Below, piece after piece: positions 9,528 to 64,000 of a DNA stretch of 64,000 nt. Below the pieces are notes generated by a model, which worked only from the letters and a program-made list of their open reading frames with translations, was not told the DNA's origin and ran no database searches. The stretch comes from Fimicolochytrium jonesii (lineage: Eukaryota): contig NW_026515670.1 in assembly GCF_025526975.1 (NCBI RefSeq), positions 372,001 to 436,000 on the forward strand, in the 5' to 3' direction. The position numbers and the translations under genes are program-made. How positions within the stretch are numbered: position 1 is the first letter of the stretch; each line of letters begins with the position of its first letter.

Positions 9528-9532
9528 CCCGT

Positions 9533-15407: not shown

Positions 15408-15412
15408 CCCGT

Positions 15413-19216: not shown

Positions 19217-19285
19217 GGCGAAAAAGGTTTGTCGGATGCAGGGCTGGACGGGTTCTGAACTTCGCAGTGTTGGAGCAGATCAAAC

Positions 19286-31721: not shown

Positions 31722-33660
31722 TGTGGCAAGATGGGTCATCGTGCGCGAGATTGTCCTAAAAAGAAGAAGGATAAGAAGTCCGACGAGGCTAAGGATAAGC
31801 CGCGTTGGGACGCTGGTCAGAAAAAGGGTTTTCGATAGAGACGTTTAATAAAGACACCGTTAGTGGCAACCAAGTTATTTTGTGGCGATCTACAGTTATG
31901 GGGAGATGGACGACACTATTCCAGAGAACAGCTTCCACTTGTGGTCGCTCCTCTGTGGGTAGATGTTATCCTCGGATTGCCATGGATCTATATGCTTGAC
32001 GATGTTCGTTTCGAGCACATAGAAGACGAGATTCCTGTTCTACGATTCCGTGCGGATGAAGTTGAACATACCCCTGGTTGCCAGACCAGTAACTAGGGAA
32101 TGGGAATCCCAGTCGTCCTGTAATGCGGCCGACCTGCGGTTCTTTGACACCAGAAAGAAGTCTAAACGATTCAAGGCGGCGATGCCTGAACGGGAAGACT
32201 CGAGTGAAGGGATTGTAATTGATCAGAAGTTCACTCGCTTATCTTGAAAAGAGGTGTATGGAAAGTGTTACATAGCGTACGCTATGGACATAGAAGCTGC
32301 AGTGAATGCGTCACCAGCTTATGTCCCCGCAGATGAGCGCGATCGTGCCGAACCAGAGCCAGAGGTTCAAATGAGCGAAGCTGCAGGACAGAAGGTTGAA
32401 TTGGGCGTGCCATCGGATCGCCTTCTTTATCCAACGTTCGAAAAGTGCGTGGATAGTTTGTTTGTCAAGCACGCAGAGTTGCCGCCCGATAGGGGAGAGG
32501 ATAACTTCCATATCGAGCTGGAGCCTGGTACGAAACCAGTCTTAAATCCCTTATGACATATGAGCGAAGCTGAACTCAAAGAGCTGAATGAGAAGGTTGC
32601 TCTCATGCTCGAGCGCGGTTGGATTCAACACCTGCAGAGCCCGTGGGGTGCGGCAGTGTTATTCGCTAAGAAAAAGGATGGCAGTCTCCGTATGTGCATC
32701 GACTATCGTGGGCTGAATAAAGCAACGATAAAGGATCGTACGCCATTCCGAAATCTTGCAGAGATGCAGGATCGGTTACGTGGAAAGAAGTTCAAGTCTT
32801 TGTTGGATATCAAAGATGTGTATCACCGCCTATTGGTTTGCAAGGCTGATAGAGACAAAACAGCGTTTCGGACGCGGTTTGGTCATTTCGAGTACTTGGT
32901 TATGCCATTTGGATTGACGAATGCGCCAGCAACGTTCCAACGGTTAACCAATAAGATATTGGGCGAGATGTACGATGCGTTTGTCATATCTCACCTGGAT
33001 GACATCTTAATCTTCTCGGAAACGGCCGAGGAGCATATTGCTCATGTGGATAGCGTTATGGCTGTTCTCGCCGAGCACAAACTCTATGTTAAGCCGTCCA
33101 AGTGCAAATGGATGCAGAAAGAGCTTGAATTATGCGGTCATCTCCTGGGAGAGGATACAATGGCCATTGCACCCTCGAAATTGGACGCCGTGCGAAACTT
33201 TGCACGTCCTATGAAACAGAAAGAGGTTCAGTCTTTCTTAGGGTTGACAAATTACCTGAGTCAATACGTCGATCGTTATGCATAGATCGCGTATCCATTG
33301 ACAGAGCTACAGTCGGGCAAAAGGCCTTGGCACTGGGGCAATGTTCAAGAGACGGCTTTCGTTAAGCTGAAGGAAGCTATTATCACAGCTCCTACGCTCG
33401 CGTCTTACGACCCGGAGCGAGATTTATATGTGTTCACGGATGCATCGGGTTTCGCAATAGGAGGATGGCTCGCCCAGCCGGCAGATCCATCGGAGCACTA
33501 CCCATCACCGTTGCCTACCTCAGTGAAGGGATCTAAGAATCTGCCACCGTTAAAGCCAATAGCTTTCTTTGGGCGGAAAATGCAACCCACTGAAACACGT
33601 TACCCCGTGCACAAACAAGAGCTATTAGCTCTGGTTAGCATATGCAAGGCGAACAGGCAT
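31722..33660 (+). pseudogene. pol: Gypsy G fragment (gag end, PR, RT, RH start), duplicated copy
   Basis: LRMCIDYRGLN, HLDD, FTDASG; mirror of 43686-45624. Confidence 0.92.
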
Positions 33661-36600: not shown

Positions 36601-37427
36601 AAGTACTGCACACAGAGCCCAAAACCCTCAAGCAAGCTCTAAACTCGAACGACTCAGCCAAGTGGAAGGAAGCCACGGATGCTGAATACCCATCCCTCGT
36701 CAAGAACGGCACCTGGGAGCTCCGTTCAGCACCCAAAGATCGCAACCTTGTCGGCTGCAAGTGGATTTACAAGACCAAGACGAATGCTGATGGCGGTATC
36801 GAACGCTACAAGGCCAGACTAGTCGCCCAAGGCGTCTCACAAGAAGAGGGAGTTAACTTCAACGAAACATTCGCACCAGTGGCCAAGTTCGACACCATTC
36901 GGCTACTCCTGTCGCGGGGAGCGGCTCAGGACCTCGAAATGGACCAAATGGACGTATCTACCGCATTCCTGAATCCGACACTCAGTGAGGAGATCTATAT
37001 GAAGCAGCGGCCGGGCTACATAGAGCCAGGAGAAGAGCATCTCGTGCTTAAACTCAAGAAGACACTCTATGGTCGTAAACAAGCCCCCAGGGAATGGAAC
37101 ATCGAAATCCACGGCACTCTTGTTGAGAAAGGCTTCACTCGTCTTGATTCAGAGCATTGCTTCTATTTCAGATTCTTTGAGGCCTGGCTACTCATCCTGA
37201 TCCTCTATGTGGACGATCTCGTACTTATGGGCAACAAGGGACTCGATCTTGACAACTTCAAGGCCAAGGAACTTCAGAGGGCGTACGAGATGCGTGACCT
37301 TGGTGCCCTACACTGCTTCCTAGGCCTCCTAGTCTCCCGAGACCGAGCGAAACAACTCCTGACGCTCAACCAGACTGGGTACATCGAAAAATGCCTTGAA
37401 ACATACGGCATGATCGATTGCAAGCCT
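31722..37427 (+). repeat. Left arm of a 5.7-kb near-identical inverted repeat
   Basis: Reverse complement of 39915-45624; paired ORF coordinates sum to 77346 or 77342. Confidence 0.97.
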
Positions 37428-38219
37428 AAAGCAACACCCAGTGTGGTAGGAAGCCCTCTCATCAAAGAAAGGGTACCTCAGACGCCTGAAATGACGGCAA
37501 AGAGGCAGGATAAGCCCTATCGAGCCGTTTTTGGCAGCCTGACCTATGCGATGATCGGCACAAGACCAGACATAGCTCAAGCCATAGGAGCTGTGAGCCT
37601 GTTCTTAGCAAACCCGGGGAAGGCGCACTGGAAGGCTGTTGAACGCATTCTGGCCTATCTCAAAGCTACCAAACACCACGAACTTCGACTTGGTGCAATT
37701 CAAGGACTCCCAAACTCCTTGGATGGTCAGACTCAGTCTTGGGAGGCTGCCCAGACACTCGAAGATCAACCACAGGATCACTCCCCACCCTTTGGAAGCA
37801 CAGTCAGCTGGAAACACGCAAGCAATGCACTATGGCACTCTCCTGCACCGAAGGCAAATATTGCACTTACAGATGCATGTAAAGAAGCCATGTGGCTCAG
37901 ATCCCTACTCAAAGAACTGAGCGTACCCCAAGACAAAACGGAACTCGTCCAAGGCCCCACAGTCAGCTGGGAAGACGACCAAGGAGCTATGGCACTTGCC
38001 ACGAACCCAGATCACCATGCACGAACCAAGAACATCGACATCCAATACCACTTCATTTGTGAACAAATCGCACACAAGACAGTTATCCTCCAGTACTGCC
38101 CAACAAAGAAGATGATAGCTGATGCGCTCACCAAACCCCTCCCCATGCCGGACTTCGTACGTCTGAGAGCTGCGATGCACTTAGAGGCTGCAAAGCCTTC
38201 AAGTGAGAGGGAGTATTGA
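34122..38219 (+). pseudogene. pol: Copia-1a gag-pol with many stops and frameshifts
   Basis: GENYHLWKF, CHHCG, PQQNRVAER, YKARLVAQG, MDVSTAFL, LYVDD, IADALTKPL. Confidence 0.93.
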
Positions 38220-38811: not shown

Positions 38812-39138
38812 TGTGATGTGGACTACCTTCCACACGGGTTGTATAACTGATGTTCGTATACAATAACTACTTTGCTGTAAGGTATTGTAGACGGACTGGG
38901 TGTTCGCCGGCTCTGCTATGCGATATGTAGTAGAAGAACTACCTGTTGTGCATAGGAACGCGCAACGAGCACTGTTAAAGTACCCATAAGGTCAGGGTTC
39001 ACTGGAGAACACTCTCAAGACACGTCATAGCCCAGGAAATACCTGTATATTTCCATCACATACAGGTATTTTTCCCCAAGGCCTGTCTAACAGACGCGAC
39101 GTGTCGTTCTCCAATAAGACCGGACACTCCACATTACA
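38812..39138 (-). mobile_element. Solo LTR of the G family inside the Copia-1a 3' LTR
   Basis: TSD ACACC; homologous to 47900-48235. Confidence 0.94.
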
Positions 39139-39166
39139 ACACCTATATCAGCTAAAGGTTCCAATA

Positions 39167-42100
39167 AGGCTCCGCAGCCTCTACGTCCATCCCAGCTCTC
39201 CGAAGTGTGAAGTCTGGCATGAGCAGGGATTTGGTGGTGCAGGTACTGGAGGAAAACTGTTTTACGTGTGACTTGTTCACAAATGAAATGTCATCTGATG
39301 TCGATATGCTTGGTTTGTGCATAGTGAACCTGACATATAGCAAGGGCCATAGCACCTTGATTGTCCTCCCAGATTACTGTGAGGTCTTGGACGAGGTCCA
39401 TTTTGTCTTGGGGTACGCTCAGATCTTTGAGTAGGGATCTGAGCCACATGGCTTCTTTACAGGCATCAGTGAGTGCCATGTATTCGCCTTCGGTGGAGGA
39501 GAGTGCTCTAGTGCATTGTTTGCGTTATTTCAGGCTTACTGCACCGCCGAAGGTGAAGAGGTATCCTGTGGTCGATCTTCGAGTGTCTGGGCAGCCTCCC
39601 CAGTCTGAGCCTGACCATCCCACAAGTTTGGGGGTTCCTTGGACCGCTCTCAGTCGAAGTTGGTTCTGTTTGGTCGTCTTGAGATAGGCCAGAATGCGTT
39701 CAGCACCTTCCCAGTGTGCTTTACCTGCATTCGCTAAGAACTGACTCACAGCTCCGACTGCTTGGGCTATGTCCGGTCTTGTGCCGATTATTGCGTGGAT
39801 CAGACTGCCTACAATGGCCCAATAGGGCTTGCCCTGCATCTCTGCAGTCTCTTCAGGCGTTTGAGGTGCCATTTCCTTGGTGAGAGGGCTTCCCACGACG
39901 CTGGAAGTTGATCCAGGCTTGCAATCGATCATGCCGTATGTTTCAAGGCATTTTTCGATGTACCCAGTCTGGTTGAGCGTCAGGAGTTGTTTCGCTCGGT
40001 CTCGGGTGACTAGGAGGCCTAGGAAGCAGTGTAGGGCACCAAGGTCACGCATCTCGTACGCCCTCTGAAGTTCCTTGGCCTTGAAGTTGTCAAGATCGAG
40101 TCCCTTGTTGCCCATAAGTACGAGATCGTCCACATAGAGGATCAGGATGAGTAGCCAGGCCTCAAAGAATCTGAAATAGAAGCAATGCTCTGAATCAAGA
40201 CGAGTGAAGCCTTTCTCAACAAGAGTGCCGTGGATTTCGATGTTCCATTCCCTGGGGGCTTGTTTAAGACCATAGAGTGTCTTCTTGAGTTTAAGCACGA
40301 GATGCTCTTCTCCTGGCTCTATGTAGCCCGGCCGCTGCTTCATATAGATCTCCTCACTGAGTGTCGGATTCAGGAATGCGGTAGATACGTCCATTTGGTC
40401 CATTTCGAGGTCCTGAGCCGCTCCCCGCGACAGGAGTAGCCGAATGGTGTCGAACTTGGCCACTGGTGCGAATGTTTCGTTGAAGTTAACTCCCTCTTCT
40501 TGTGAGACGCCTTGGGCGACTAGTCTGGCCTTGTAGCGTTCAATACCGCCATCAGCATTCGTCTTGGTCTTGTAAATCCACTTGCAGCCGACAAGGTTGC
40601 GATCTTTGGGTGCTGAACGGAGCTCCCAGGTGCCGTTCTTGACGAGGGATGGGTATTCAGCATCCGTGGCTTCCTTCCACTTGGCTGAGTCGTTCGAGTT
40701 TAGAGCTTGCTTGAGGGTTTTGGGCTCTGTGTGCAGTACTTTGGTAGCCAGGGCATAGGCAAGGTTGCTTTGGTGTACTCGGGTGCTCTGGGAGCATGTG
40801 ATGCGTCTGTAATGCACCAAATCATCATCTTCCTGGTCTCCCTGGTCGTCTAGGTCCTCTGGGGCCTCTGCCCATTGATCAGTGTCAGGTTGTGGGTTGG
40901 GGGATGCGTCAGGGAGCTCAGAATCCCCCTCTGCAGCGTGCGGGCGTAATTCGGTGTTGTCTGTGGGCTTGGGTGCGTGCGAAATGATGCTGTCAGGCTC
41001 AGGATCGAATTCAAAGCTCGCTAAGCTGTCATAGGAGTGATCTGACGTGTCTTCATGCGTATCCTCGTTGTCCAGGCTGTTGTAGAACTTGTTTTCATTG
41101 AACTGGACATCTCTTGATTCGATGATGGCGCCCTGATCATCGGGTTTGAGTGACTGGAGCCTCCAGGCTTTGCTGGAAGAGCTATAACCGAGAAAAAGAC
41201 ACTTCTTGGCTTTGTTGTCCAGCTGTCCTCAGTTTTTCTTGAGAACTATGCATAGGCTCCATACATCCATCCAAACACTCTGAGATGTAGGAGGATGGGC
41301 TTGCGAGCAGCCATAGGGCAACGATTTCGAATGTGGACAGCTGCAAGCAGAGCTTCTCCCCAGTATTCGTGTCCGAGACCAGCTTGGGTGAGTTGGCAGC
41401 GTGCCATGTCGACTAGACTTTGATTCGTACGTTCCGCTACTCTGTTCTGCTGTGGGGTGTCGGTAGCAGCGCGCTGGTGTTGGATTCCAGCTTTTCGGAA
41501 TGTGAGGGCAAATTGGATGGATTCGTATTCGCGTCCTTTGCCCGATCGGAGGACTTTGATTGATTTCCCAGTCTGTTCCTCCATAAGAACCTTGTAGTCC
41601 TCCCAGGCATCAAAGGTATCGCTTTCCTTGCGTAGGAGTTTGACCCAGACAATTCTGGACTTTTCATCAATCCATGATGAGAAGTAGGTACATCCCCCAA
41701 AGGTAAGGTAGATGTCCTCATGGGGCCATTGAGGTCAGTGTGGACAAGTGCCAGGACTTCTGTGGCTCGGGTAGCTTGTTTCTTCGGGAAGGGAGCTCTG
41801 GACTGCTTGGAGAACGTGCAGACTTTGCAGATGTGGCCATCAGGATATCCGATGACTCTGATGTCACGTTGGTAGCCGTTGGTGAGCTTCTAGACGTCTT
41901 GGGCGTTCAGATTACCGAATCTCTGATGCCAGATATGAAAGGGTGTGCTACAAAGTGCTCCTGCTGAGTAGGCGTGTTCAGGGATAGCCTGGGCTGTCAT
42001 GGTGTACAGACCGTTCTCCTTGAGAGCTCAAGCAAGAGCACCATCCCTGGTCTTGATTGTGCACTCTGCACTCGAGAACTCAACTTATGCTCCATTCTCA

Positions 42101-43671
42101 GTCAGCTGGGCTACTGAGATGAGGTTCTTTTCCAGTTTGGGAACGAACCAGACGTTTCGAAGGGTGCTAGCATGCTCCCCGTGCGTTCTCATCGAGATGG
42201 AGTCTGTCACGATGGCTAGGACTGACCGGTTGTCAGCTGGCTGGACCTGGATCTCGGTTTCCAGCGTCTTGTAGTCCTGGAGCCATTCCCTGATGTGTGT
42301 CATGTGTGAGGAGGCTCCTGAATCGATAATCCAGCACTCAGGGCTGATGATTTCAGTGCGCTTCATACCTGCCATGAAGAGGAACCCGGTTCCCTGGCTG
42401 GCCTGGTGTGGTTCGGCTTGATTCGCATTGTTGGCTTGAGCTAGCTCTCGTTTGAGGTTCTTGCACTCGTTCTTCCAATGCCCTTAAATGCCACAGTGAT
42501 GGCACTTATCCTTCTTCCTGGCGAACCTGGCTGAACCCCCAGCCTCCTGCTGGTGTCCCCCATCCCCAACGAAGGCGTTTCCATTCGATCTGACTGGTTT
42601 CGAGTTCTCCTTGCACCTAGCTTCTTCATTCAGAAGTCTGGCCATCAAGAACTCCATGTCTAAGTCGTCTGCCCTGCTTTCGAGGCTCGTGATAACTTGT
42701 TCATAGCTGTTTGGTAAGCTGTATATCAAGGTGGTCATGATATCGTCTTCGGGTACTGGTGCACCGATAGCCTCCAGCTGTTGTGCAAGCTGTCTGACCT
42801 TGTTGATGTGGTTTGTGATCGAGTCTGACTCGTTCATAGTGATGGTAAGGAACTTTTGACATAGGAAGAGCTTGCTGGCAAGCCCCTTTCATTCGTGCAC
42901 CTCAGCTAGCTTAGACCAGGCTTCCCAAGCCGTCTAAGCTGTATGCACATGCGTAAGCTGAGTGTCGTTCGGACTGAGGCAGATGTATGCCAAAGCCCTC
43001 TTGTCCTTCCTCTCCATTGATTCCTCCTCCTACCCTTCAGCCCCCTTTCCCTTCGACGGGCTTGCTGTAGCCGTATCTCCTGCCTTCTCCTTCTTCCCAG
43101 CTTCCACTGCCACCCAAAGTCCCTTTGCCTTCAACATCATCATCATCGTAAACTTCCATAGATGGTAGTTCTCCCCCGTGGACTTATCCACCATAAGTTT
43201 TGAAGTCTCTGAGTCTCCAGCCATCGTGTGTTCGAGCGAAATTCATCTGTTTCGAGAGTGTGGACACGCTTTGGATGATGGTATATCATTGGACGTGTTT
43301 TGAGTGTCAAGCAGTGCGTATCCTGTCAAGTTGAGCACTTTGGTGTTTATGAACAGGATATGTTGAGGGTAGGGCATAGGTAGCGTCTGTAGGGGGTTGC
43401 AAACGTCTTGAATAGGATTGGTGAAGCCGGTTTTAGTGATGATAAGGCTCAGGGCTCATAACCTATTGAAACCTTTAGCTGATATAGGTGTATCTGAGAG
43501 GTTGCTAAGACTGGTTCGCCGATGACTGAGGAACATAGCTGCCCAAAGGGCAGTGTTGTGATGTAAACGACAGTACTGGGGCTAGAGTAGCGCGATAGAA
43601 AGCTGTGTATTGAAGAGGATAAAGTGAGAGGAGGGGATGGGCAACAGGCCTGCCTTTTATAGGAATCTGGG
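39167..43671 (-). mobile_element. Copia-1b: inverted Copia copy, tail-to-tail with 1a, lacking its 3' LTR
   Basis: Near-identical to 1a over 39915-43671 and clearly diverged over 39167-39914 (SDWGGCPDTRRSTTGY); PBS 43450-43463. Confidence 0.92.
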
Positions 43672-45624
43672 ATGCCTGCTCTGGGATGCCTGTTCGCCTT
43701 GCATATGCTAACCAGAGCTAATAGCTCTTGTTTGTGCACGGGGTAACGTGTTTCAGTGGGTTGCATTTTCCGCCCAAAGAAAGCTATTGGCTTTAACGGT
43801 GGCAGATTCTTAGATCCCTTCACTGAGGTAGGCAACGGTGATGGGTAGTGCTCCGATGGATCTGCCGGCTGGGCGAGCCATCCTCCTATTGCGAAACCCG
43901 ATGCATCCGTGAACGCATATAAATCTCGCTCCGGGTCGTAAGACGCGAGCGTAGGAGCTGTGATAATAGCTTCCTTCAGCTTAACGAAAGCCGTCTCTTG
44001 AACATTGCCCCAGTGCCAAGGCCTTTTGCCCGACTGTAGCTCTGTCAATGGATACGCGATCTATGCATAACGATCGACGTATTGACTCAGGTAATTTGTC
44101 AACCCTAAGAAAGACTGAACCTCTTTGTGTTTCATAGGACGTGCAAAGTTTCGCACGGCATCCAATTTCGAGGGTGCAATGGCCATTGTATCCTCTCCCA
44201 GGAGATGACCGCATAATTCAAGCTCTTTCTGCATCCATTTGCACTTGGACGGCTTAACATAGAGTTTGTGCTCGGCGAGAACAGCCATAACGCTATCCAC
44301 ATGAGCAATATGCTCCTCGGCCGTTTCCGAGAAGATTAAGATATCATCCAGGTAAGATATGACAAACGCATCGTACATCTTGCCCAATATCTTATTGGTT
44401 AACCGTTGGAACGTTGCTGGCGCATTCGTCAATCCAAATGGCATAACCAAGTACTCGAAATGACCAAACCGCGTCCGAAACGCTGTTTTGTCTCTATCAG
44501 CCTTGCAAACCAATAGGCGGTGATACACATCTTTGATATCCAACAAAGGCTTGAACTTCTTTCCACGTAACCGATCCTGCATCTCTGCAAGATTTTGGAA
44601 TGGCGTACGATCCTTTATCGTTGCTTTATTCAGCCCACGATAGTCGATGCACATACGGAGACTGCCATCCGTTTTCTTAGCAAATAACACTGCCACGCCC
44701 CACGGGCTCTGCGGGTGTTGAATCCAACCGCGCTCGAGCATGAGAGTAGCCTTCTCATTCAGCTCTTTGAGTTTAGCTTCGCTCATATGTCGTAAGGGAT
44801 TAAAGACTGGTTTTGTACCAGGCTCCAGCTCGATATGGAAGTTATCCTCTCCCCTATCGGGCGGCAACTCTGCGTGCTCGACAAACAAACTATTCACGCA
44901 CTTTTCGAACGTTGGATAAAGAATGCGATCCGATGGCACGCCCAATTCACCCTTCTGTCCTGCAGCTTCTCTCATTTGAACCTCTGGCTCTGGTTCGGCA
45001 CGATCGCGCTCATCTGCGGGAACATAAGCTGGTGACGCATTCACTGCAGCTTCTATGTCCAGAGCGTACGCTATGTAACACTTTCCATACACCTCTTTTC
45101 AAGATAAGCGAGTGAACTTCTGATAAATAACAATCCCTTCACTTGAGTCTTCCCGTTCAGGCATCGCCGCCTTGAATCGTTTAGACTTCTTTCTGGTATC
45201 AAAGGACCGCAGGTCGGCCGCATTACAGGACGACTGGGATTCCCATTCCCTAGTTACTGGTCTGGCAACCAGGGGTATGTTCAACTTCATCTGCACGGAA
45301 TCGTAGAACAGGAATCTCGTCTTCTATGTGCTCGAAACAAACATCGTCAAGCATATAAATCCATGGCAATCCAAGGATAACACCCACCCACAGAGGAGCG
45401 ACCACAAATGGAAGCTGTTCTCTGGAATAGTGTCGTCCATCTCCCCATAACTGTAGATCGCCACAAAATAACTTGGTCGCCACTAACGGTGTCTTTATTA
45501 AACGTCTCTATTGAAAACCCTTTTTCTGACCAGCGTCCCAACGCGGCTTATCCTTAGCCTCGTCGGACTTCTTATCCTTCTTCTTTTTAGGACAATCTCC
45601 CGCACGATGACCCATCTCGCCACA
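39915..45624 (-). repeat. Right arm of the 5.7-kb inverted repeat
   Basis: Mirror of 31722-37427. Confidence 0.97.
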
Positions 45625-48235
45625 ATCGAAAGACTTCATGTGCGAGAGGTCTGGGCGTGCGTAAGGTTTAGCAGCTTCCGCCTTCTTAGCTTTCCCCCCC
45701 TTCTTGCCCGCAGTACCCGCGGCAGAAGAGACATTAGCACGTTTAGGCGCACCACTCCCAGAAGCAACCGCTTTATTGTTCGCGTCGGTTCCCTTATCGG
45801 CAAGATGACGTACAGCAAACGAACTAAGTGCACGATCCATCAAACGAGTTGATGGAAATGCGAGCAGAGGGTGTTGCTCCCTATAATCGACCATCGTATG
45901 CACTAACGACTGGGCGATCTCATAGCCAACGGTATTGGTCTTATCGCGAGTAAGACCACAAAGGAACAGGTTATTCAAATCGTCGGGAGTGATAACCTCC
46001 AGGTTGCGCTGTGCCTCGGCAACGATACATTTGAACTCCGTCACATACGAATCCATCGACTTATGATGAAAAGTCATTCGGTGCAAAGCATTGAGCGCGT
46101 TCGTTTTCGCGTTCGTAGGATAGAAGGCTAACTTGAAAGCCGTTTCAAAATCCTCTTTCCGCATGTCAGGCCTGCATGCGGTGTTGAACCAGGTACGTGC
46201 GTCGCCTTCAAGCGAGCTAGATACCTTCTGCATGTACTCAAAGTCGTCAATCGGAAGACCAAAAGTAACCATGAAGTCTGTATGCTTCTGCAAAAACGTG
46301 TCGACAAAAGCGGCCTCACGCCGTTTGCCATTGAACGGATGCTGCAAGATCCGTGTACCATGGTGCCTACGCCGCTCGATATAGAAAGGATCCACCGACC
46401 CATCCTGCAGCACATCACGGCGCATTGCGGAATCACGCTCCAACGTAGCTCGCACACGATCCTGTTGAGCGTGATGTTCCTCGGCATGTTGATCGCGAAC
46501 TTCTGCTCAAGTGGCAGCCGCGGCAGCCTTCATTCGGGCATTAAGCTCCTCGACGGATATTGTCAACATAGCCTTAGTGGGCAGGTGACCAGGAGGAGGT
46601 CGAGGAGGTCCACCGACCTGGATACCCTCCATTGGAACAGGTCCCGTCGTTCGAGGAGGAAGAGGAAGGCAAACTTCAACACGAAGCTCGTCAACCGACG
46701 TTTCCGGCTCCTCAACGATCTCAGTAATAACAGCTGTACCCACAGGAGTAGTGTCCTCACTCCTGGTAACTGTACTACCCGTTGACGTACTCATGACGAC
46801 CTTCTGGCCAGTGTAATCTTGTTGTCAGGTTGAATAACCTCAAACAACGACGAATACGTCCAGAATGCGGACACAAGTACTCCGTTGATGTTGTATAGCT
46901 CAGTACCTCAAGCAAGACACACAAACAACTAAGTTCTCGAATCAGGTATATGCCATGTGCAATAACCAAAATTCGGGCATAGATTTCCCCTCTTCCGAGC
47001 GAAAAGTCCCCAAAATCCACCGTGTCCGATGTCGGCGGGTTTTGGCTACGTTGATCCTAGACAGGATCTGAAGCTATCAGTTTGAAGAGGCCTTTGAGAG
47101 GATCAAGAAGAACTCTAACGGCTTAGCTCTGTCCCAAAACTGAAAGACTTTTCCTATCCGCCCGTTTTCGCTTAAGTATCGAATTAACGACGAAGGCGAT
47201 GACGGATAGCTCGTTTTGCAGTGATTCAAAAATCCCAAAACGTTCAGGTGAATTCAAGGTGATTCTCAGGATTGGGAAGAACCTTCTCGGGGGTCATTTC
47301 AGTCAGACTGTGATAGTTTTGCTATACGGAGGTTATAATGGCGACGATTTAGCGCGTTTTTTGATATCTCTGTATCCGTAGGTCGAATCTCTTTGAAACT
47401 CCCACAAGTTTTCAAGCTCAGTGCGCTCTACAAGGTTTCCGAGTTTGAAGGGGATAGAATTACTGGGGTAGATTTCCGATCCGTGAACGGGTTACTAATT
47501 GGCCACTAGTAAACACGCGTTTATGTTGACTATGTGTCAACCGTCGAACGTATACTCTCAAGATGTTGATATACCGAAAGAGTAAGGTATGGATGGCAAA
47601 CTATGAGTTACGGAGGTTTGTTTAACCATCCAGGTGCGAAAAGCGAGGTGGTTGCGACGTATCGGTCGTTCCACTAGGTAAATAACCTAGAGGCCGGCGC
47701 TTTTCGACTATAGCGCACTAGGGGCCTCAGGAGTTGCAGTGGACGGTGCCCGGGACGTCCCCAAGGCTATATGAATCGTCTAGAATGATTGTATCGACGT
47801 TCTGGGACGATTGCTGCGTCCGCAATTTCGAGATGCTGAAGTTGCCGAACGCGTTTATCTACTAGGAAGCTCGTTTCGTTCGAACGAGTGGTGCTACCAT
47901 GTGATGTGGACTACCTTCCACACTGGTTGTTTAACTGATGTTCATTAACAATAACTACTTTGCTGTAAGGTATTGTAGACGGACTGGGTATTCGTTGGCT
48001 CTGCTATGCGATATGTAGTAGAAGAACTACTTGTTGTGCATAGGAACGCGCGACGAGCACTGTTGAAGTACCCATGGGGTCGGAGTCCACTGGAGAACAC
48101 GTTCCAGTGAGGCATTAAAAGAATGAAAACCTTGAACCCACTGGAGAACACTGTCTGGGACATGTCTCGCACTCCTAGCGAGACATGTCTCGCCGACACG
48201 TCGTTCTCCAACTAGACAGGACAACCCACATTACA
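43686..48235 (-). mobile_element. Gypsy element G, 5' half: LTR 47900-48235, PBS, 1.1-kb leader, gag, pol truncated in RNase H
   Basis: PBS TGGTAGCACCAC 47888-47899; gag ORFs 46794-45508 (LEGDARTWF, FDCGEMGHRAGDC); RT YLDD in 44061-45092. Confidence 0.92.
45508..46794 (-). pseudogene. gag: G gag
   Basis: Capsid-like motifs, zinc knuckle, ends at G GGT TTT slippery site. Confidence 0.85.
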
Positions 48236-48771
48236 AGTACGGTACCCTTCTTCTGAGAGGTACTGGTAGTCGAATTCACGAGGCCCCGAAAAGGAACATC
48301 TCACTCCGCAACAGGAACGTGAGTACTTCCTGAACGGGCTGACCTTCCACCAGGTCGGACGTCGCATCCGTGAGTAGTGTTACCAGTTCATCCTACAAGA
48401 GGGCAATGAGGACGAAGACATCCCCATCAAGACCCATCAGGAAGCCGCCCAGAGGGCCTTCCGCATCAGGGGTTACGCCGACCGGATCGCCCGCATTTTG
48501 GAAGACGGCAAACGGGTCCAACCCGCTACGGCCACTCCGGCCCAGGCTCGCGACAAGCGCAATACGCCCCGCACCTTCAACTCCAACCGAGTACCCCTTG
48601 GGAAGGAGCGGAAAACTCAGCGAGGCGAATGTCACACTTGCGGCAGCAAGGACCACGACGCCCGAGCGTGCCCTAAGAACCCGGACCGTCTCAAGATCAC
48701 GGCGGCGCCCGCCGAGGCCTTCGATGATGACAACGAGGAGTTCCATTCGACCGCGGAGGAACCCCCGAGCC
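48236..48771 (+). pseudogene. gag: Gypsy I gag 3' fragment
   Basis: CHTCGSKDHDARAC; joins the pol at 60322 (minus strand) through TSD GAGCC. Confidence 0.8.
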
Positions 48772-49142
48772 ACTTCGCAATAGTCGGCAGAGGAAGTAGA
48801 CGACTGAGGAAAATCTATGTAGTGTGCAATGCTGTACTGTGAAGTATGTATTGTCTTGTGTAGAAAAGAGGACGCGAGGTCCGAAAGGGGAAGAAAAGAG
48901 TGAAGTCCCGTACGCGGAAGCGTGGCGTAAGCGGGAGGGGAGTTACGTGAGGAAATAAACTACAGGAACCCTAACCAGGGACTCGGGAGTATGAAACCTC
49001 CAACACCCCCACTCAAACTCACGAGTCTATCTAAGTGAAGGATAAATCTAAACAATGAGTACAATGGTCGCCCCAGAGAGGTAAGATCAACGTTCCCATA
49101 CTCAACTACCGTATCTCAGACTACCACACGATACGCGAAACA

Positions 49143-49796
49143 ATGGCGAACGGAGGCAAGAACGGCGGGAATGGCAAGAAGAGCGGCGATGGCAAGAAGA
49201 AGCAAACGGCCCGTAAGGCGGTGAGACCAGCAGCCCCTCCAGCCGCACCTCCGCCAGGACCCTCACGACCAACAACGCGCTCTACGCGCGCATCGTCCAC
49301 AGCGTCCGCAAGCGACTCTTTGATGTCGAAAGCCCGAGTTAGAGAAGCTCTTTGATTGGCGATGGAGGTATCGACGTTGAGGTACCGCAAGGATAACCAT
49401 GAGAACCTCGCGAAGCACCTGGCGTTTACAAAGGCAAAACTGGATCGATCGAACCGAAAGAAGGGGTCGTTCGAGGCATTGATGGAAGAGGCAGACAACC
49501 TTGGATGTAAGGCAGTCTCAGAGTCGCGATATAAGGCAAAAGGCTGCATATCGAAAGAAAAGACGAAAGAGGCGAAGCGCCGCAGTGATGCGGTCGAGAG
49601 ACGGGAGCGAGACAAGATGATGAAGCGACTCCAGTACTTGCGAAAGCACATGGATGATTGGTCTTCGAGTGATGATGGAGACAGTGACGGAAACGCCGGG
49701 GGAGGTGGTCCAGGGGGTCCGCCTGGTGGAAGCGGAGCCGGAGCCGGTGGAGCCCCCGGTGACGGGGCAGCGGCGGCTATCACGGTTGCGGTTTAA
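49143..49796 (+). pseudogene. Antisense accessory ORF of Copia-2 (about 217 aa, basic/coiled-coil, one internal TGA), function unknown
   Basis: ORFs 49143-49355 and 49356-49796 are contiguous and in frame; they lie between the pol stop and the PPT. Confidence 0.6.
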
Positions 49797-49854
49797 GCTG
49801 CCGAAGTCGTATATAGTGCCCAGAAGTGATCCCGGTATGGGTGTTCCGTATGTC

Positions 49855-50879
49855 TCATTCGGACGTAGTCGTCGCCGGCTGTCTATTGCTAGCGACACGT
49901 CCTTCTTGAATTGCTTGAATAAATTTCGTATGTGTCTCGGGAGGAAAAGGCTTTGTGAAGTAACCAGCCAGTTGCTCCTGCGTCGCGGTGTTGAGGAGTA
50001 CGACGTCTTTCTTCGTCACGCTATCGCGTAACTTGTGGTAGTGTACGTCGATCTGTTTGGAGCGTTGGGTAATAGCCGTGGAGGTGGCAATCTCGCGGGC
50101 GCTCTGATTGTCGATGTGGATTGGCGTGGGGTCTTTGATGTTGCCGTATTCGTCGCCGCAGACCTCCGCGATAATCGAGCGGAGCCAGAAGACCTTGTTG
50201 TAACCGAGGGCTGCGGCGATATACTCAGCTTCCGTGGAGCTGAGAGCTACGCACTTCTGCTTGGTGCTTTTCCAGTAGAAAAGCTGGTCGTTGAAGGAGC
50301 TGGCGATGCCCGCGGTAGATTTGCGGTCGTTGACATCGTCGATATAGGTAACATTGCTGATTGTGAGTTGGTTCCCTGACGGCGAGAGCTCGTAATCGAA
50401 GACTAGACCCAGGCAGTTCTTGATGGGACCAAGATCCGTACAGTTGAAATGAGAACATAGTTCACTTTTCACTTGCTTGACATGTACGGGAAAGCAGCAG
50501 GCGATGAAGTCGTCCACATAGATAAGGAGCATCTGGAGGGCGTCCAGAGTTCGCGTCGTTGTCGCGTAGCGATAGAAGACGCAAGGGCAGTTCTTTAACG
50601 GGGTGAAGCGGAGAGAACTGAGGGTTTCGCGAAGAGTATGGTACCAGAGAAGCGGAGATTGCTTCAGACCGTATAGAGCCTTGCGCAGGAGGTATACCCA
50701 GTCTGCCCGCGGCTTGTGCGGATCTTTGTAGCCCTGAAATTGTTCAACATAGACGGGTCCGTCGATATCGCTCCGTAAGAACGCGTTGTGGACATCAAGT
50801 TGAGGGATTTCCATACCGAGGGAGACGGCAATGGAGAGGAAAAGGCGAAGAATTGACATGGGTAGGGTTGGAGCGTAGG
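49855..50879 (-). pseudogene. pol: Copia-2 RT/RNase H with an internal deletion
   Basis: ALYGLKQSP, LIYVDD, NVTYID|DVNDRKST junction, YFTKP. Confidence 0.9.
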
Positions 50880-51869: not shown

Positions 51870-52292
51870 GGTCCAGGCATAATCGGAGCCGTCGTCGAGG
51901 AACGCGAGACTGTAGCGCTCTCCGTCGATGCCGCAGATCCAAAATGGACCTTGTAAATCGCTGTGTATCAGCTCACCGGGTTTGTGTGGCGGGGATGTCA
52001 ATTTAGGGAAGGTAAGGCGGGTAGCTTTGCTGAGAGCGCATGGATCGCAGCGTGCGCCGGAGTCCGGCGTAGCCCCCACTGAAGGCCAATCCTCTACTAT
52101 CTTGGGCATAACCGGGAGAATGTGGTTTCCTGGATGTCCCAGACGTTGGTGCAGAAGTTGGCAGGTTATGGAAGCAACCAGTGCATGTGCATTGGGCTTG
52201 TAGGTAGTAACCCGTCCTTCTAAATAGTATGCGTCGCCTTCGCGCATCCCCATCGCGAGTAAGTGTCGGTCAGTGTTGAACATGACGACGTC

Positions 52293-52656
52293 CGTAATGT
52301 GTGTTGGGTTGTCCAGTCTTATTGGAGAACGACGTGTCAGTGAAAGGCCTTCCGACCTGTCAGTGAAAGGCCTTTCGACCCGTCAGTGAAAGGCCTTTCC
52401 TAAGCACTTGGGCTTACGCCCGTCACGCTCAGGCTTACGCCCTTCACGCTCAGACAGTGTTCTCCAGTGGACCCCGACCACATGGGTACTATAACAGTGC
52501 TCGTTGAGAGTTCCTATTCACAACAAGTAGTTCTTTTACTACATACCGAATAGCAGCGCCGGGAACACCCAGTCCGTCTACAATACCTTACAGCAAAGTA
52601 GTTATCGTATATGAACATCAGTTAAACAACCAGTGTGGAAGGTAGTCCACATCACA
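52293..52656 (+). mobile_element. Solo LTR of the G family in Copia-2 pol, with internal tandem repeats
   Basis: Decayed TSD ACGTC/ACATT; 22-bp unit x3 and 21-bp unit x2 inside. Confidence 0.88.
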
Positions 52657-54201
52657 ACATTGGTGGGGTGAAAGGAGACGGTAACGCCGTTATCAGTGCA
52701 TTTAGCAACAGATATAAGCGGCTGGACAAGACTAGGAACCAATAACACGTCGCGTAGAGCGGGAACGTTGCCACCGGACATAGATTGGATAAGTCCGGTA
52801 CCCTTGTTTTGAGAGGTGATGGTAGTCGAATCCACGAGTCCAATAAGGCGTTGGTAGTCTTGAAGAGAGGATGGATCTAGATCCTCGAAATAGGGGGTCA
52901 TGTGATCTGTACAGCCGGAATCCACGTTTGCCTTGAAGATCCGGACATCGTGGTTGGCTGGGTGGACTTGAACGTGCATGGCATGGGCCGTGGAGGCTGC
53001 AGCGGGTGCGTCCTGCTTAGTTTTCGCGTTCTTGTCCAAAATGTCTTTGCGAGCTTTGTAAGTAAAGCAGTTTTCCGACTTGTGGCCATCCCGTTGGCAG
53101 TATTTGCACTGGGGAGGCTTCTTGATTGCATCAGAAGATGACGATTGGGTAGAGGGGGTGCCTCTAGAGCCGCCAGGCTCGGATTTGTTCTTCCTCTTCT
53201 GAGGTAGATTGGAAGTAACGTGGGCAGCGGATGCGCCCGACTGATGCATACCCGGGGTCTTCTCGTTGCGCTAGTCGGCTATGCGAATCGCGGCCTCTTG
53301 AGAAGGACTAAGGTGATCGTCGTACTGAGCCTGGGCAGTGATCAGGGTACTAAGATTATTAGGAAGGGCTTGAAGGAAGTCGGCACAGAGTATGTATTCC
53401 GGGAGCCCAGGTAGTTGTCCAGCCAAAAGGTTGAACTGGGCGATGGTTAATTGACTTGGGCTTCAGTGCGCGCAGTCTGTGAAGAACTTGCAGCAGATGA
53501 GGGCGGGGAATGAAGCGCCTTAACATCGCAGAGCGTAATCCGAGCTGAGGAGGCAGTCCATAGACGTCTTGAATATCGTGCCATGAAATTATGGAGAAGC
53601 GCTCATTTTCAGGAAGGCTTTTCCACCACTGGAGAGCTGGTCCCGTGAGCGCGTTGACAACGAAGTCTACGCATTTGGAAGGCGAAATCATCTGGTACTT
53701 CATAATCACATCAATGTGATAAATGAACCCTTGTAGCTTGGTAACGTTGGGGTCGCCATTGTAGGTGCCAAGTTTACTAAGCATAGTGTTGATGAAGACT
53801 TTGGAAGCTGATTTGCCGGCCGAAGGGGGTGTTACAGGAGTAACTGATCTCACAGACGCACTTTTGTGATGAATTTCAGCGAAAGGAGGGCTTTGAGAAC
53901 GGGTTTGAAAGTAAGGATGCCGTTCCGGGGCTTTATAAGCGTATGGGAAAGAGTTGGCCATAGCGCGCTGAGGAGGCGCATGGGGTGCCAGCGACACAGA
54001 GGTCACGTATGGCACATTTGCCTGGATGGGGCTAGTTGAGTAATGAGAACGAGTGCTGTTCACAGGCGACTGAGCGAGCGGGTTCACGGAGGGGACTGTC
54101 ACAGAGGGGCCCGGGTCTCTCGTCCGCTATGGGGTACCTAGGACCGGGTTGTTGGTATCGCAGTATATGTATGGTCCCGAGAAGGACTTGTGGTGCTACC
54201 A

Positions 54202-58343: not shown

Positions 58344-60780
58344 GTCCGTGCCCTGACCGATTCACCCCCCTACGGCGAAGCCCAACGCGCCGGAGAAGAT
58401 GTAGGGAACTTATCACGGTCGAAGAACGCCAGGGCAGGGGCATCGGCGACGCGCGCCTTGATGGTGTCGAAGGCTGCTTGTTCCTCGGCGCCCCACTGCC
58501 ACGGGCGGGTGCTGGATTGAAGGTTGGTCAGTGGGAGGGCTGTGTCAACATAATGCGGAATGTATTCCTTGACAAAGTTGACTAGCCCCATGAAGGAGAG
58601 GAGCTTGAGGGCGCTGGTGGGTTCGGGTCAAGCGCGGACAGCCTTGACCTTGGATAGGGCGATAGAAAGGCCGTCCTTACCGGCCATATGCCCGTAGAAC
58701 CCGACCTCGTCCACTGCCCACTGACATTTGGACAGTTTCACGTGAAGGCGGTGAGCCGAGAGGGTCTTGAGCACTTCAGTGACATGCCCGATGTGTGAGT
58801 CCATGTTGGGACTGAAAATGAGGATGTCATCGAGGTAAGAGATGAGGTATGAATCGTACTTGTCACCCAGGAGTTTGTTCGTGAGGCGTTGGAACGTCCT
58901 GGGCGTGTTTGTCAGCCCAAAGGGTAATACGTTGTACTGGAAGTGGCCGAAGCGCGTCCGGAAGGCAGTCTTCTCACGGTCTTCCTCCCAAATGAGGATG
59001 CAGTGGTAGGCATTGCGGATGTCGATAGCGGTGAAGACCTTCATGCCGGCGAGGCGGTCCCGAAGGTTGTTGAGGTTCGGGAGGGGCGTGGCCTCCTTAT
59101 GGGTCATCTTGTTGAGGGCCCGGTAGTCGATGCAGCAGCGGAGGCCACCGTCCTTCTTGGAGGCAAACAGTACGGGTGCCCCCCAGGGGCTCTTAGAGTG
59201 GGAGATCCACCTGCGGGATGATAGGCGCTTGAGTTGCTGCCGTAGCTCGTCGAGTTCGTCGGGGGCCAAGTGGCGGAGTGGGAGCATGACAGGCTTGAAG
59301 CCGGGCCTCAGATTGATGCTGAAGTTGTCGTCGCCGCGGTCCGGCGGGAGGCCGGTTTGTTTGGTGAAGAGGGTATCTGTAAACTGTTCCAACGTGGGGC
59401 AAAGGGGGTGGTCGGCGGCGACCAACGCAAGTGGATCCTCCGGGGTGGTATCCAGAGGGGTGGCCGTTGCCTTTCGGTTCGCTAGGATCGCACTTCTCTT
59501 CGCCTTGACTGTGCAAACAAAGTCAGCCTCGGCTTCGGCGACGTCCGCAAGGGTGTTGTGTGTGGCCAGGTCCACATCCGTGTCCGTGCGTGAGACCCAT
59601 GCGGTATAGACCTCGGTGGTCTTATCCCTCTTGATTACTCGCTTGAATTGTTTGGCCGTGAGGAAGCCCTCCTCATTTAAGGCCGCGCGCTTGGGGTAGA
59701 AACGGCGGGGGTGAGGGCCCGTATGAGGTTTGAGTAACCGGGCCGCGCAAGCGCTGGGTTGCTGCCATCGGAGGGTGGTGGGTTTAGCTCGGAAAGTTAG
59801 TACGGTTGCGTTAGCCTCAAACTGAAGTGCTGGGAACCCATTGTCGCGCCATGAACGTATGAGGTCAAGGTCCAAGATGTGTAGCCCTAGGATAACATCC
59901 GCGCGGATCGGGGCCACGACAAACGGGACCCGAGGAGTCTTATGAGGTATTCGTTGCTCCGTGAAGACGGAGACGTCGGCGCAAATCATCCGCGTGGCGC
60001 CGTACGATCCGGCTTTGTCAACCCAGCGCACCTCAAGGGGCGTGGGACAGTCGTACGTGTTAAGATCATGGTGTTGGGCGAATGAGTCGCTGATGAGCAT
60101 GGTATTGCAACCGGTGTCTATGAGGATGCGGCAGAAGATGCCGCCGACACATCCATGGGCCATGAACGTGTGCTTGTCGATGACGGGCCCGGGGCGGTAT
60201 TCCAGAATGGTGTCCTGCAGTCGGGGTCTGGTAGGTCCCTCGGGTTGTCTGGCCGCTGAGGCGCTGCAGGCGGTGAGGCCCTGGGGAGAAAATCCTGACT
60301 TTCGATGGAGTACGCGGGGCTCTGTTGGAGGTTTCATACTCTCAAGTCCCCGGTTAGGGTTCCCGTAGTTTATTTCCTCACGTGACTCCCCTCCCGCTTA
60401 CGCCACGCTTCCGCGTACGGGACTTCACTCTTTTCTTCCCCTTTCCGACCTCATGTCCTCTTTTCTACACAAAACAATACATACTTCACAGTACAGCATT
60501 GCACACTACATAGAGTCCCCTCAGTCATCTGCTTCCTCTGCCGACTACTGCTAAGTGGTCATGAGCCCTGGCTTCGGCCGCAACTAGCGGACGTTCCAGG
60601 ATAAAAGAACTCACGGTCTCCAGTCACCGCACTCTTAAGGATTCAACAACCCAATCTCAGAAGGGCTACGCAGCTGCAGTGACAGCCGGCAAGCCCTCCG
60701 CTCACCACACGCGGTCCCAGGGAGGAGCTCTCCTGGGCCCACTACCTGCGGCTACTAGAGGGGGAGGAAAGAAAGTTCAC

Positions 60781-60902
60781 CAACCCCCTGTTAAGTGTTC
60801 TGAATCTATTAATCAGCGCTCTGGCATTGACTCCCGTACTAACAACCCCCTGTTAAGAGTTCTGAATCTATTAATCAGCGCTCTGGCATTGACTCACGTA
60901 CT
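60781..60902 (+). repeat. 62-bp tandem duplication in the Copia-2 leader
   Basis: CAACCCCCTGTTAAG...GACTC.CGTACT occurs twice. Confidence 0.92.
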
Positions 60903-60971: not shown

Positions 60972-62629
60972 ATGCCTGGTGAATTTGTGGATGAAAAGAG
61001 GAGGAAAGAGGAGCTTCCTGCTACTATTGCAGAATGGAAAGACGTAACCACGCCATATGTGGATGCGCCTGAATCACGTGGACATACCGGAACCAACCCC
61101 TTCCTGATGGATTCCATTCAGGAAGAACCTATGCCTGTTAAGCAGGAACAGGAGATGACTCAAATAAAGGATCAAATAGCCAATCTGACTGGATTGGTTA
61201 CCTCGCTCTTGAATTCGGGCCGAGCGCCTACAGTCCCCTCCGTGAACCTGCTTGCTCAGTCGCCTGTGAACAGCACTCGTTCTCATTACTCGACTAGCCC
61301 CATCCAGGCAAATGTGCCATACATGACCTCTGTGTCGCTGGAACCCCATGCGCCTCCTCAGCGCGCTATGGCCTACTCCGTCCCATACGCTTATAAAGCC
61401 CCGGAACGGCATCCTTACTTTCAAACCCGTTCTCAAAGCCCTCCTTTCGCTGAAATTCATCACAAAAGTGCGTCTGTGAGATCAGTTACTCCTGTAACAC
61501 CCCCTTCGGCCGGCAAATCAGCTTCCAAAGTCTTCATCAACACTATGCTTAGTAAACTTGGCACCTACAATGGCGACCCCAACGTTACCAAGCTACAAGG
61601 GTTCATTTATCACATTGATGTGATTATGAAGTACCAGATGATTTCGCCTTCCAAATGCGTAGACTTCGTTGTCAACGCGCTCACGGGACCAGCTCTCCAG
61701 TGGTGGAAAAGCCTTCCTGAAAATGAGCGCTTCTCCATAATTTCATGGCACGATATTCAAGACGTCTATGGACTGCCTCCTCAGCTCGGATTACGCTCTG
61801 CGATGTTAAGGCGCTTCATTCCCCGCCCTCATCTGCTGCAAGTTCTTCACAGACTGCGCGCACTGAAGCCCAAGTCAATTAACCATCGCCCAGTTCAACC
61901 TTTTGGCTGGACAACTACCTGGGCTCCCGGAATACATACTCTGTGCCGACTTCCTTCAAGCCCTTCCTAAGAATCTTAGTACCCTGATCACTGCTCAGGC
62001 TCAGTACAACGATCACCTTAGTCCTTCTCAAGAGGCCGTGATTCGTCGGGCGCATCCGCTGCCCACGTTACTTCCACTCTACCTCAGAAGAAGAAGAACA
62101 AATCCGAGCCTGGCGGCGCTAGATGCACCCCCTCTACCCAATCCTCATCTTCTGACGCAACCAAGAAGCCTCCCCAGTGCAAATACTGCCAACGGGATGG
62201 CCACAAGTCGGAAAACTGCTTTACTTACAAAGCTCGCAAAGACATTTTGGACAAGAACGCGAAAACTAAGCAGGATGCACCCGCTGCAGCCTCCACGGCC
62301 CATGCCATGCACGTTCAAGTCCACCCAGCCAACCACGACATCCGCATCTTCAAGGCAAACGTGGATTCCGGCCGTACGGATCACATGACCCCCTATATTG
62401 AGGATCTAGATCCATCCTCTCTTCAAGACTACCAACGCCTTATTGGACTCGTGGATTCGACTACCATCACCTCTCAAAACAAGGGTACCGTACTTATCCA
62501 ACCTATGTCCGGCGGCAACGTTCTCGCTCTACGCGACGTGTTATTGGTTCCTAGTCTTGTCAAGCCGCTTATATCCGTTGCTCAATGCACTGATAACGGC
62601 GTTACCGTCTCCTTTCACCCCACCGACGT
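60972..62629 (+). pseudogene. gag: Copia-2 gag and protease, frameshifted
   Basis: LTGPALQWW, zinc knuckle, VDSGRTDHM. Confidence 0.88.
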
Positions 62630-62722
62630 TGTGATGTGGACTACCTTCCACACTGGTTGTTTAACTGATGTTCATATACAATAACTACTTTGCTGTAAGT
62701 TATTGTAGACGGACTGGGTGTT
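62630..62722 (-). mobile_element. Truncated G-family LTR at the same target (GACGT) as in the left Copia-2 copy
   Basis: TGTGATGTGGACTACC start; same flank as at 52657. Confidence 0.88.
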
Positions 62723-62731
62723 TGCCTACCC

Positions 62732-64000
62732 AATGCACAAGCACTGGTCGCTTCCATAACCCCCCAACTTCTGCATCAACGTCTTGGACACGCTGGAAAC
62801 CACATTCTCGCGGTTATGCCTAAGATAGTAGAGGATTGGCCATCAGTGGGAGCTACGCCGGACTCCGGCGCACGCTGCGATCCATGCGCTCTCGGCAAAG
62901 CTACCCGCCTTACCTTCCCTAAATCGACATCCCCGCCACACAAACCCGGTGAGCTGATACACAGCGATTTACAAGGTCCATTTTGGATCTGCGGCATCGA
63001 CGGAGAGCGCTACAGTCTCGCGTTCCTCGACGACGGCTCCGATTTCGCCCATACCTACTCCATCAAGGACAAGGAGGCATCCACTATTAGCGCAAGGTTT
63101 ATGATCTTTCATAAGTGGCTCAAGAATCAAACTGGCGTCTCCCTCAAGATCCTACGTACGGATAGGGGAGGAGAATACACTGGCGAGCTCACGTCGTACC
63201 TGCACAACAATGGGACTACCCATGAGTCCACTGTCGCGTATTCTAGTCAACAAAACAGGAAAGCAGAGCGCCTCAATTGGACGTTGCTGGACCGCATACG
63301 CGCCATCTTCGCGGACACTCACCTTCCCCGCAAGCTCTGGCCGTACATTCTGGAGGCTGCCTCTTACCTGCACAACCTCTACCCGCATTCAGTTGCATCC
63401 CCGGACGCCAAATCGCGCTCCGAATTCCTTACCGGTCGCCGCCCAAGCATCGCGCATCTGCACAAGCTCGGATGTCTCACGTACACTGTCGTTCCACCCA
63501 AGGGCCGGGACAAGATGGCAAATCGTGCTACCAAGACATACCTAGTGGGCTATGCTCACCAACAAGGCACCAAAGGGTATTATGTATGGGATCCAGTACG
63601 CGACACTGTCGCCGTCTCACGTGACGTTCGTTTCAACAAATCTACTGGGCTCCCTGAGCACCTTTGTCAAGATCCTGCTCTCCTAGATCTTCTAGAAGAT
63701 GCTCAAACCTCGCAAGAGGAGTTCCCTATCAAACACATCCTTTCTGAACGTCAGCGCCGCGGCAAGAACGTCCAAAAGGAATACCTTGTCAAGTGGGTTG
63801 GTTTTACTACCCCTACCTGGCAAAGATCCGCAGAAACCGCGCGCAGACTGGGTATACCTGCTGCGCAAGGGAACCAACTCACAATCAGCAATGTTACCTA
63901 TATCGACGGTTTACTTGAACAATTTGGACAACAAAACGCTACCCCGGTCTCCACGCCGTGCGCCGACTCTGCGCGTACCCAACCAGCCTCCGCAAGCCCC
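62732..64000 (+). CDS. pol: Copia-2 integrase with in-frame chromodomain, followed by RT remnants (open to the window end, so absent from the ORF track)
   Basis: Hand translation: LLHQRLGH..CDPC, HSDLQGP, LRTDRGGEY, QQNRKAER, GYYVWDP..SRDVRF, EEFPIKHILSER..EYLVKWVGFTTPTW. Confidence 0.85.

Follow-up and report, generated by a model that had tools for sequence, protein, structure and literature searches.

A truncated but real chromodomain was found in frame behind a Ty1/Copia integrase at 63716-63820 (plus strand) of the window, that is, the whole stretch of 64,000 nucleotides analysed, and it appears to mark an old, little-described group of Copia elements with a Gag of the Ty3 type. Our preferred reading, which we consider probable, is that this is the deletion-cut chromodomain of a Copia lineage with Ty3-type Gag, in whose intact members the domain would tether the integrase to methylated histone tails and so to silent chromatin. 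The locus in the window is one more dead copy, and its value lies in the lineage.

Structure and state of the Copia element

The following features were assigned to the element and to the further parts of its family in the window.

60318-60322: target-site duplication of 5 bp before the 5′ LTR; the same 5 bases lie beyond the 3′ LTR
60323-60556, plus strand: 5′ LTR of 234 bp with ends TG...GT, 93% identical to the 3′ LTR
60557-60569, plus strand: primer-binding site, immediately after the LTR
60972-62388, plus strand: gag with a Ty3/Gypsy-type capsid region (Ty3_capsid, Retrotrans_gag and the Gag profile of the relatives)
62022-62684, plus strand: zinc knuckle and Copia-type protease (Pol_BBD, E 1.5e-11)
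62729-63643, plus strand: Copia integrase with zinc-binding part, catalytic core and SH3-like domain (Pfam, frame and motifs)
63716-63820, plus strand: front of the chromodomain, about 35 residues, in frame with the integrase (Pfam, profiles and alignment)
63821-64000, plus strand: RT remnants after two internal deletions (match to the sister copy)
48772-50878, minus strand: 3′ part of the same family (RVT_2, E 6.5e-29)
49005-48772, minus strand: 3′ LTR, 93% identical to the 5′ LTR
51881-54099, minus strand: second copy, from gag through protease to the start of the integrase, 95% identical

The marks of Ty1/Copia were present, namely LTRs, primer-binding site, purine tract and 5-bp target-site duplication, together with RVT_2-type RT, Pol_BBD protease and the accessory domains of a Copia integrase, for which Pfam matches to gag_pre-integrs, rve and SH3_retrovirus (E 2.6e-20) were obtained. 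The Pol order was protease-integrase-RT-RNase H, which is intact in the relatives, and the Gypsy order RT-RNase H-integrase with RVT_1 was not found in the window element. The LTRs end in TG...GT instead of the usual TG...CA; these termini were confirmed by a related solo LTR at 29234-29518, which ends alike and is flanked on both sides by a 5-bp duplication of its own. The primer-binding site at 60557 may be of the half-molecule tRNA-Met type, which it resembles. Half-tRNA priming is reported for Copia lineages only, as far as the available text of PMC6317226 goes. A tandem duplication of about 60 bp (60781-60902, 97% identical) was observed in the 5′ leader.

The window copy is dead. A frameshift near 61870 and a 43-bp deletion at 62044/62045 disrupt its gag, and the protease frame is ended by a stop within an inserted repeat remnant at 62630-62726. 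The repeat to which this remnant belongs is about 200 bp long and recurs in several elements (52656-52453, 47900-48100 and 38812-39016); in the window Copia it sits between protease and integrase. Because of the gag frameshift, the insertion behind the protease and the deletion of the chromodomain helix and most of the RT, this copy cannot work.

In the 3′ part, RT and RNase H (49855-50878) are followed by about 850 bp, the purine tract and the 3′ LTR. These 850 bp contain a decayed antisense frame (49146-49790, plus strand) of about 215 codons with one stop, basic and charged in composition, for which no convincing Pfam match was found. The 3′ LTR is flanked by a gag-like frame at 48378-48770 with a weak zinc-knuckle match (E 0.09), and Gypsy sequences for protease and RT are present outside the 5′ LTR. 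From these two flanks and the five shared flanking bases, we infer a single insertion at a Gypsy gag-pol border, which would later have been duplicated and inverted. The second copy stops before the chromodomain; it was rejected as independent evidence, since the gag frameshift, the post-protease insertion and the target-site duplication of the LTRs are all shared. One public run contained a small share of the stretch; its short contigs matched parts of gag, of the protease and of the integrase at about 90-95%, and the chromodomain was covered by none of them. Public RNA runs with the stretch were not listed.

Eukaryotic retrotransposons are densely nested in the window, which consists entirely of repeats. 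A Gypsy chromovirus at 10994-14866 (plus strand) has an unbroken pol frame of 1290 residues and a full chromodomain (E 3e-18), and lies between LTRs at 9533-10061 and 14879-15407; because these LTRs are 99.2% identical, it appears to be a young insertion. Copies related to it were observed at 8454-9587 and 15402-19279. An inverted duplication of 6.5 kb (31722-38199 and 39166-45624, 96% identical) contains a Gypsy element with a second Copia family nested within it. This Copia family has a similar primer site at 33883 and 43463; no Chromo match was found in it, and in the RT tree it fell outside the chromodomain group. Two frames, 24645-26294 (minus strand) and 30681-31370 (plus strand), may correspond to the methyltransferase-like part of DIRS retrotransposons, which they resemble, and the former gave no Pfam match at E 0.05.

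The truncated chromodomain

According to the frame list of the window, an open frame extends over 62699-64000 on the plus strand. Within it, the integrase motifs LRTDRGGEY (63152-63178) and SRDVRF (63617-63634) are followed by EEFPIKHIL, starting at 63716, by EYLVKWVGF at 63779-63805 and by TPTW, ending at 63820. In Pfam, this piece matched Chromo PF00385 at model positions 4-26 of 53 only, with E 0.018 in the whole ORF and E 7.8e-4 on the short piece. The HMMER check suggested by the sequence-only reading did find the match, but the truncated piece scored 19.8 bits, below the Pfam cut-off of 25.1 bits. A profile made from only the four Gypsy chromodomains of the window matched the piece at E 4.8e-6, and a profile of the chromodomains of 14 relatives, with the window left out, gave 30.4 bits on the segment, compared with 7.6 bits for the best of 2000 shuffled segments. 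Because of the score with the Gypsy profile and of 30.4 bits against this shuffle maximum, the match to a chromodomain is not due to chance. Open frame, motifs, Pfam and profile scores agree with the earlier claim that a Copia integrase is followed in frame by a chromodomain.

All three cage aromatics are present in the window domain, F (63722), W (63794) and F (63803), in the columns established for the cage of HP1. The domain is without the end of its third strand and its C-terminal helix, both of which have been deleted.

Position 63820/63821 is a deletion junction, at which the remainder of the chromodomain is gone and RT DNA comes next. The segment 63821-63870 matches the sister copy at 46 of 50 bases within its Copia RT DNA (50728-50679, minus strand), and the junction into Copia RT described from the sequence alone was thus confirmed. 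A second deletion, of about 300 bases, lies at about 63868-63870 with a 3-base microhomology, after which 63868-63908 joins to 50377-50337 (41/41 bases). Since 63821-63868 is RT DNA read out of the RT frame and the second deletion restores that frame, the frame stays open beyond 63820 partly by luck. Measured against the relative P0002, the first deletion would have taken out roughly 170 codons, and by the predicted model of P0002 these would include the C-terminal helix of the chromodomain.

Relatives carrying the domain

In the integrase search, P0001 was the best match and P0002 the second. P0002, 43% identical, has integrase, SH3, a full Chromo domain (1-51 of 53, E 3e-8 in Pfam) and RVT_2 in one frame. 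Both proteins align with the window without a break from the SH3 linker into the chromodomain; in P0001 the first 17 residues of the domain are present, and then its sequence departs. A predicted model of P0002 displayed three strands and a helix at 211-265, with pLDDT 73-86 over 211-260, and a Foldseek search with the three-domain model of this protein gave only RT and integrase structures among the matches listed.

A profile search of 1.84 billion proteins yielded 150 Copia Pol proteins. With the Gypsy-only chromodomain profile, a whole chromodomain between SH3 and RT was detected in 14 of these 150, a fraction that overstates the natural share, the profile used for the protein search having contained the chromodomain of P0002. 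The Pfam Chromo cut-off was passed by 11 of the 14; P0187 and P0194 were below it, and P0127 gave no Pfam match. In single frames of the relatives, the full order is Gag (Ty3-type)-protease-integrase-SH3-chromodomain-RT-RNase H. The domain is old, because it is shared across Pol proteins with only about 31-46% identity to P0002. Of the members, only P0098 (TPX52540.1) carries an organism name, that of the chytrid Powellomyces hirtus; the remainder derive from assemblies of metagenomes or runs. The aromatic cage is complete in 9 of the 14 relatives, or in 10 of 15 members counting the window copy. In P0112, P0127, P0159, P0187 and P0194, the domain is kept with one or two cage aromatics lost; these five recall the type II chromodomains of seed-plant chromoviruses as treated in the available part of PMC6317226.

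Judged from these relatives, the chromodomain is a trait of the Copia lineage. Relatives without the segment had been named beforehand as the finding that would speak against the claim; the nearest relatives carry the domain, and at the same place. The order integrase-chromodomain-RT, which was to be looked for in intact copies, was confirmed in relatives (P0002).

Among longer proteins, a word-index search for the SH3-chromodomain region gave 0 of 158 candidates, and one with the corresponding region of P0002 gave 3 of 341. Scans of viral contigs showed no group member, and a metagenome contig scan produced 119 pattern matches, none of which was confirmed as a group member. In a further metagenome scan with two loci, L001 was found to be an ordinary Copia without chromodomain and was rejected.

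Gag type

The Gag is of the Ty3 type, a finding that goes beyond the sequence-only reading and bears on the origin of the element. The window gag matched Ty3_capsid (E 4e-6) and Retrotrans_gag (E 5e-5), both just under the Pfam cut-off, and a Gag profile of seven relatives matched its two frames at E 8e-9 and 5e-4. PF03732 was present in all seven distinct full-length chromodomain members, three of which also had Ty3_capsid; PF14223/TYA, the usual Copia Gag (typical, with no standing as a formal criterion), was present in none of the seven. The chromodomain-less controls were 65 of 75 full-length matches, the 10 above 1650 residues having been dropped. In these, PF14223 was found in 61/65, Ty3_capsid and Chromo each in 0/65 and PF03732 in 2/65; PF03732 alone is a weak marker, as it also matches those two controls and the ordinary Copia L001 (4e-4).

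For the profile of the seven members, the best 60 of 221 PDB matches included the solved capsid of Ty3 (6r22, E 6.5e-14) as well as HP1-family chromodomains (1ap0, E 3.3e-14). Control P0144 matched the Drosophila Copia capsid 8vvw (E 1.6e-10), and for P0187 and P0127 no match to this capsid was found at E 1. The Gag profile of the group gave E 1.5e-13 and 5e-12 on two Gypsy Gags of the window, and 0.019 on the best chromodomain-less Copia. A profile of the window Gypsy Gags was weak, with E 1.8 for the window Copia gag, and it ranked chromodomain members first. When the window gag piece alone was compared with the PDB, no relative was found.

Phylogenetic analysis

On an RT tree with 151 rows, the chromodomain label changed 4 times, compared with 15.4 in shuffles, and none of 500 shuffles was as low. 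The window RT grouped with P0002 and P0093 at 99, and the chromodomain group as a whole was split in the RT-only tree. A further tree of concatenated integrase, RT and RNase H contained 53 rows, consisting of 14 carriers, the window and 38 chromodomain-less rows picked from across the RT tree. It separated the 15 chromodomain rows and P0175 from the 37 others at 97/94, with a bootstrap not fully settled; with a mixture model and without the short P0093, the same branch had an SH-aLRT of 92, below the star of the tool. This tree is unrooted and includes no CoDi, GalEa, Ty1 or outgroup sequence. The carriers and P0175 appear to form one side of a supported branch of an unrooted tree, short of a proven clade. 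In P0175 the linker is short and proline-rich and the chromodomain is absent, which would most simply be a loss of the domain.

Precedents in the literature

Llorens et al. (2009) described a putative integrase chromodomain in CoDi-A of diatoms and none in other Copia elements (available text of PMC2774666), and CoDi is again given as the only Copia case in the accessible parts of PMC5348765 and PMC11541908. In the portion of PMC6317226 at hand, the chromodomain is assigned to no group but the chromoviruses, with 0 of 5410 mostly plant Copia elements carrying it. The earlier statement that integrase chromodomains are exceptional in Copia was right, but a published precedent exists in CoDi-A. 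Among the matches listed in searches of the open literature, neither a fungal chromodomain Copia nor a Copia with Ty3-type Gag was found. Neither is described in the available sections of PMC3248453, PMC5445492, PMC2806351, PMC6572847 and PMC6875170, nor in those of PMC12440569, PMC10516033, PMC3601003, PMC12477816 and 10.64898/2025.12.07.692804. Within these texts, the integrase-chromodomain Copia design is known from diatoms, and the pairing with a Ty3-type Gag and a fungal member were not found in print.

We tentatively regard the group, with somewhat less than even confidence, as an ancient unnamed lineage separate from CoDi-A, in which Copia enzymes, order and priming would be combined with a Ty3-type capsid and an HP1-like chromodomain, either as a stable hybrid or as a surviving early branch. 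It is somewhat unlikely that the element lies within the CoDi-A (CoDi-I) clade or shares the domain with it by descent, in which case a known group would have a wider host range: superfamily and domain position are the same (PMC2774666 and PMC5348765, as far as available), but the single member found with a name belongs to a chytrid fungus, a diatom name was on 0 of 23 proteins looked up, most of which are nameless, and no Ty3-type Gag is described for CoDi-A in the accessible text.

Proposed function

In Copia elements, the protease cleaves Pol to give integrase and RT. In intact members of the group, the protease would cut between chromodomain and RT, where about 40-85 residues are available, and the chromodomain would probably stay on the integrase after cutting, because in the 14 relatives it starts 14-69 residues past SH3 and 88-137 residues ahead of RT. 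By similarity to the HP1, CDY and Chp1 domains, the domain would bind methyl-lysine, with H3K9me as the likeliest mark; CDY, Chp1 and HP1-family domains were the closest solved structures among the PDB matches listed. Binding of methylated H3 may then bias insertion toward silent, repeat-rich heterochromatin, in analogy to chromoviruses, in which binding of methylated H3 by the chromodomain is connected with heterochromatin in the available parts of PMC6673714, PMC5348765 and PMC11541908. An integrase chromodomain alone proves no particular target, according to the reference list of PMC3601003 and the accessible part of 10.64898/2025.12.07.692804.

The domain could be real and inherited and have a role other than methyl-histone reading, such as the binding of cDNA, RNA or a host protein. 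That 5 of the 14 relatives keep it without the full cage is consistent with such a role, as is a title in the reference list of PMC3601003 stating that the Tf1 integrase chromodomain promotes cDNA binding. This role is nevertheless unlikely, as all three aromatics are present in 10 of 15 members, the window copy included, and the best PDB matches among those listed are methyl-lysine readers.

Origin of the domain

A single ancient acquisition may account for the module, followed by at least one loss (P0175) and by cage decay in 5 of 14 relatives. The domain was not copied from the Gypsy elements of the window, because the best DNA match of the segment to them was 36 bases at 75% (E 0.24) and the protein identity of the domain was 24-44% to the window Gypsy, compared with up to 53% to a Copia relative. 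A chromodomain tree, which had also been suggested, was run with 19 rows and 58 columns; only 1 of its 16 inner branches was supported, and it does not resolve the donor. The convergent capture by a Copia lineage living among chromoviruses, as first put forward, was not shown: the domain is no copy of the window Gypsy, it is old, and the tree names no donor.

A shortened chromodomain (Pfam 1-40 of 53) was observed in a Gypsy integrase at 4846-6147 (minus strand), with a short loop before the last tryptophan like that of P0002 and the window Copia. As a donor this element was given no support by the chromodomain tree.

Both the Ty3-type Gag and the chromodomain might be retained ancestral traits of an early-branching Copia grade, with the usual Copia state derived. 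The end branches of the group are 0.4-0.9 with short inner branches, its members are as divergent mutually as from ordinary Copia, the midpoint root falls inside the chromodomain group in three tree runs, including the one with the mixture model, and both traits are common to Gypsy chromoviruses. We consider this ancestry rather improbable, as midpoint rooting served for drawing only and is drawn by long branches in a tree without outgroup, and unrelated LTR lineages have gained chromodomains several times (PMC5348765, PMC11541908 and PMC12477816, in the parts available), which makes capture plausible.

A local chimera, in which a deletion brought the chromodomain of a Gypsy element, nested or adjacent, up against this Copia integrase, is largely refuted and highly improbable. 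Gypsy elements crowd the window, four of them with recognisable chromodomains; the window is also full of deletions and inverted duplications, the window Copia copy itself having several deletions, and holds no second copy that spans the region. But the linker from SH3 to the chromodomain aligns unbroken with P0002 and P0001, no window Gypsy DNA matches the segment, and the domain is present in every one of the nearest relatives in the trees.

Comparison with known systems

The presence of a chromodomain on the integrase is treated as nearly diagnostic of Gypsy chromoviruses. A divergent, coherent Copia group with this domain, reaching at least into chytrid fungi, would extend the diatom exception. 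As the domain is always accompanied there by a Ty3-type Gag, such a group would also be evidence that modules for capsid and targeting moved between superfamilies or predate their split. With this group it could be tested directly whether a Copia integrase can be steered by a chromodomain.

Like the window element, CoDi-A/CoDi-I have the Copia order with a putative chromodomain at the integrase's C-terminal end (available text of PMC2774666). CoDi-A is described there from diatoms only, whereas the one named relative of the present group is a chytrid. A Ty3-type Gag goes unmentioned for CoDi-A in the same text.

Chromoviruses resemble the window element in having the chromodomain right after the SH3-like domain, at the integrase's C-terminal end, and the three-aromatic cage of their type I chromodomains (accessible part of PMC6317226) matches that of the window. 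Their Gag is of the PF03732/PF19259 kind, as in the chromodomain Copia group. Unlike chromoviruses, the group has Pol_BBD, gag_pre-integrs, SH3_retrovirus and RVT_2, with the integrase before the RT; the chromodomain is internal to Pol in the Copia group and at the end of Pol in chromoviruses.

CopiaMBD of arthropods is also a Copia with a chromatin-reading domain proposed to guide integration. This domain is different, being a methyl-CpG-binding domain derived from a host protein, with binding shown experimentally (PMC6673714, as far as available). Chronos and the ECR elements of oomycetes and brown algae are independent fusions of integrase and chromodomain outside the chromoviruses (available parts of PMC5348765, PMC11541908 and PMC12477816). 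In these sources they are all Ty3/Gypsy elements, unlike the group described here.
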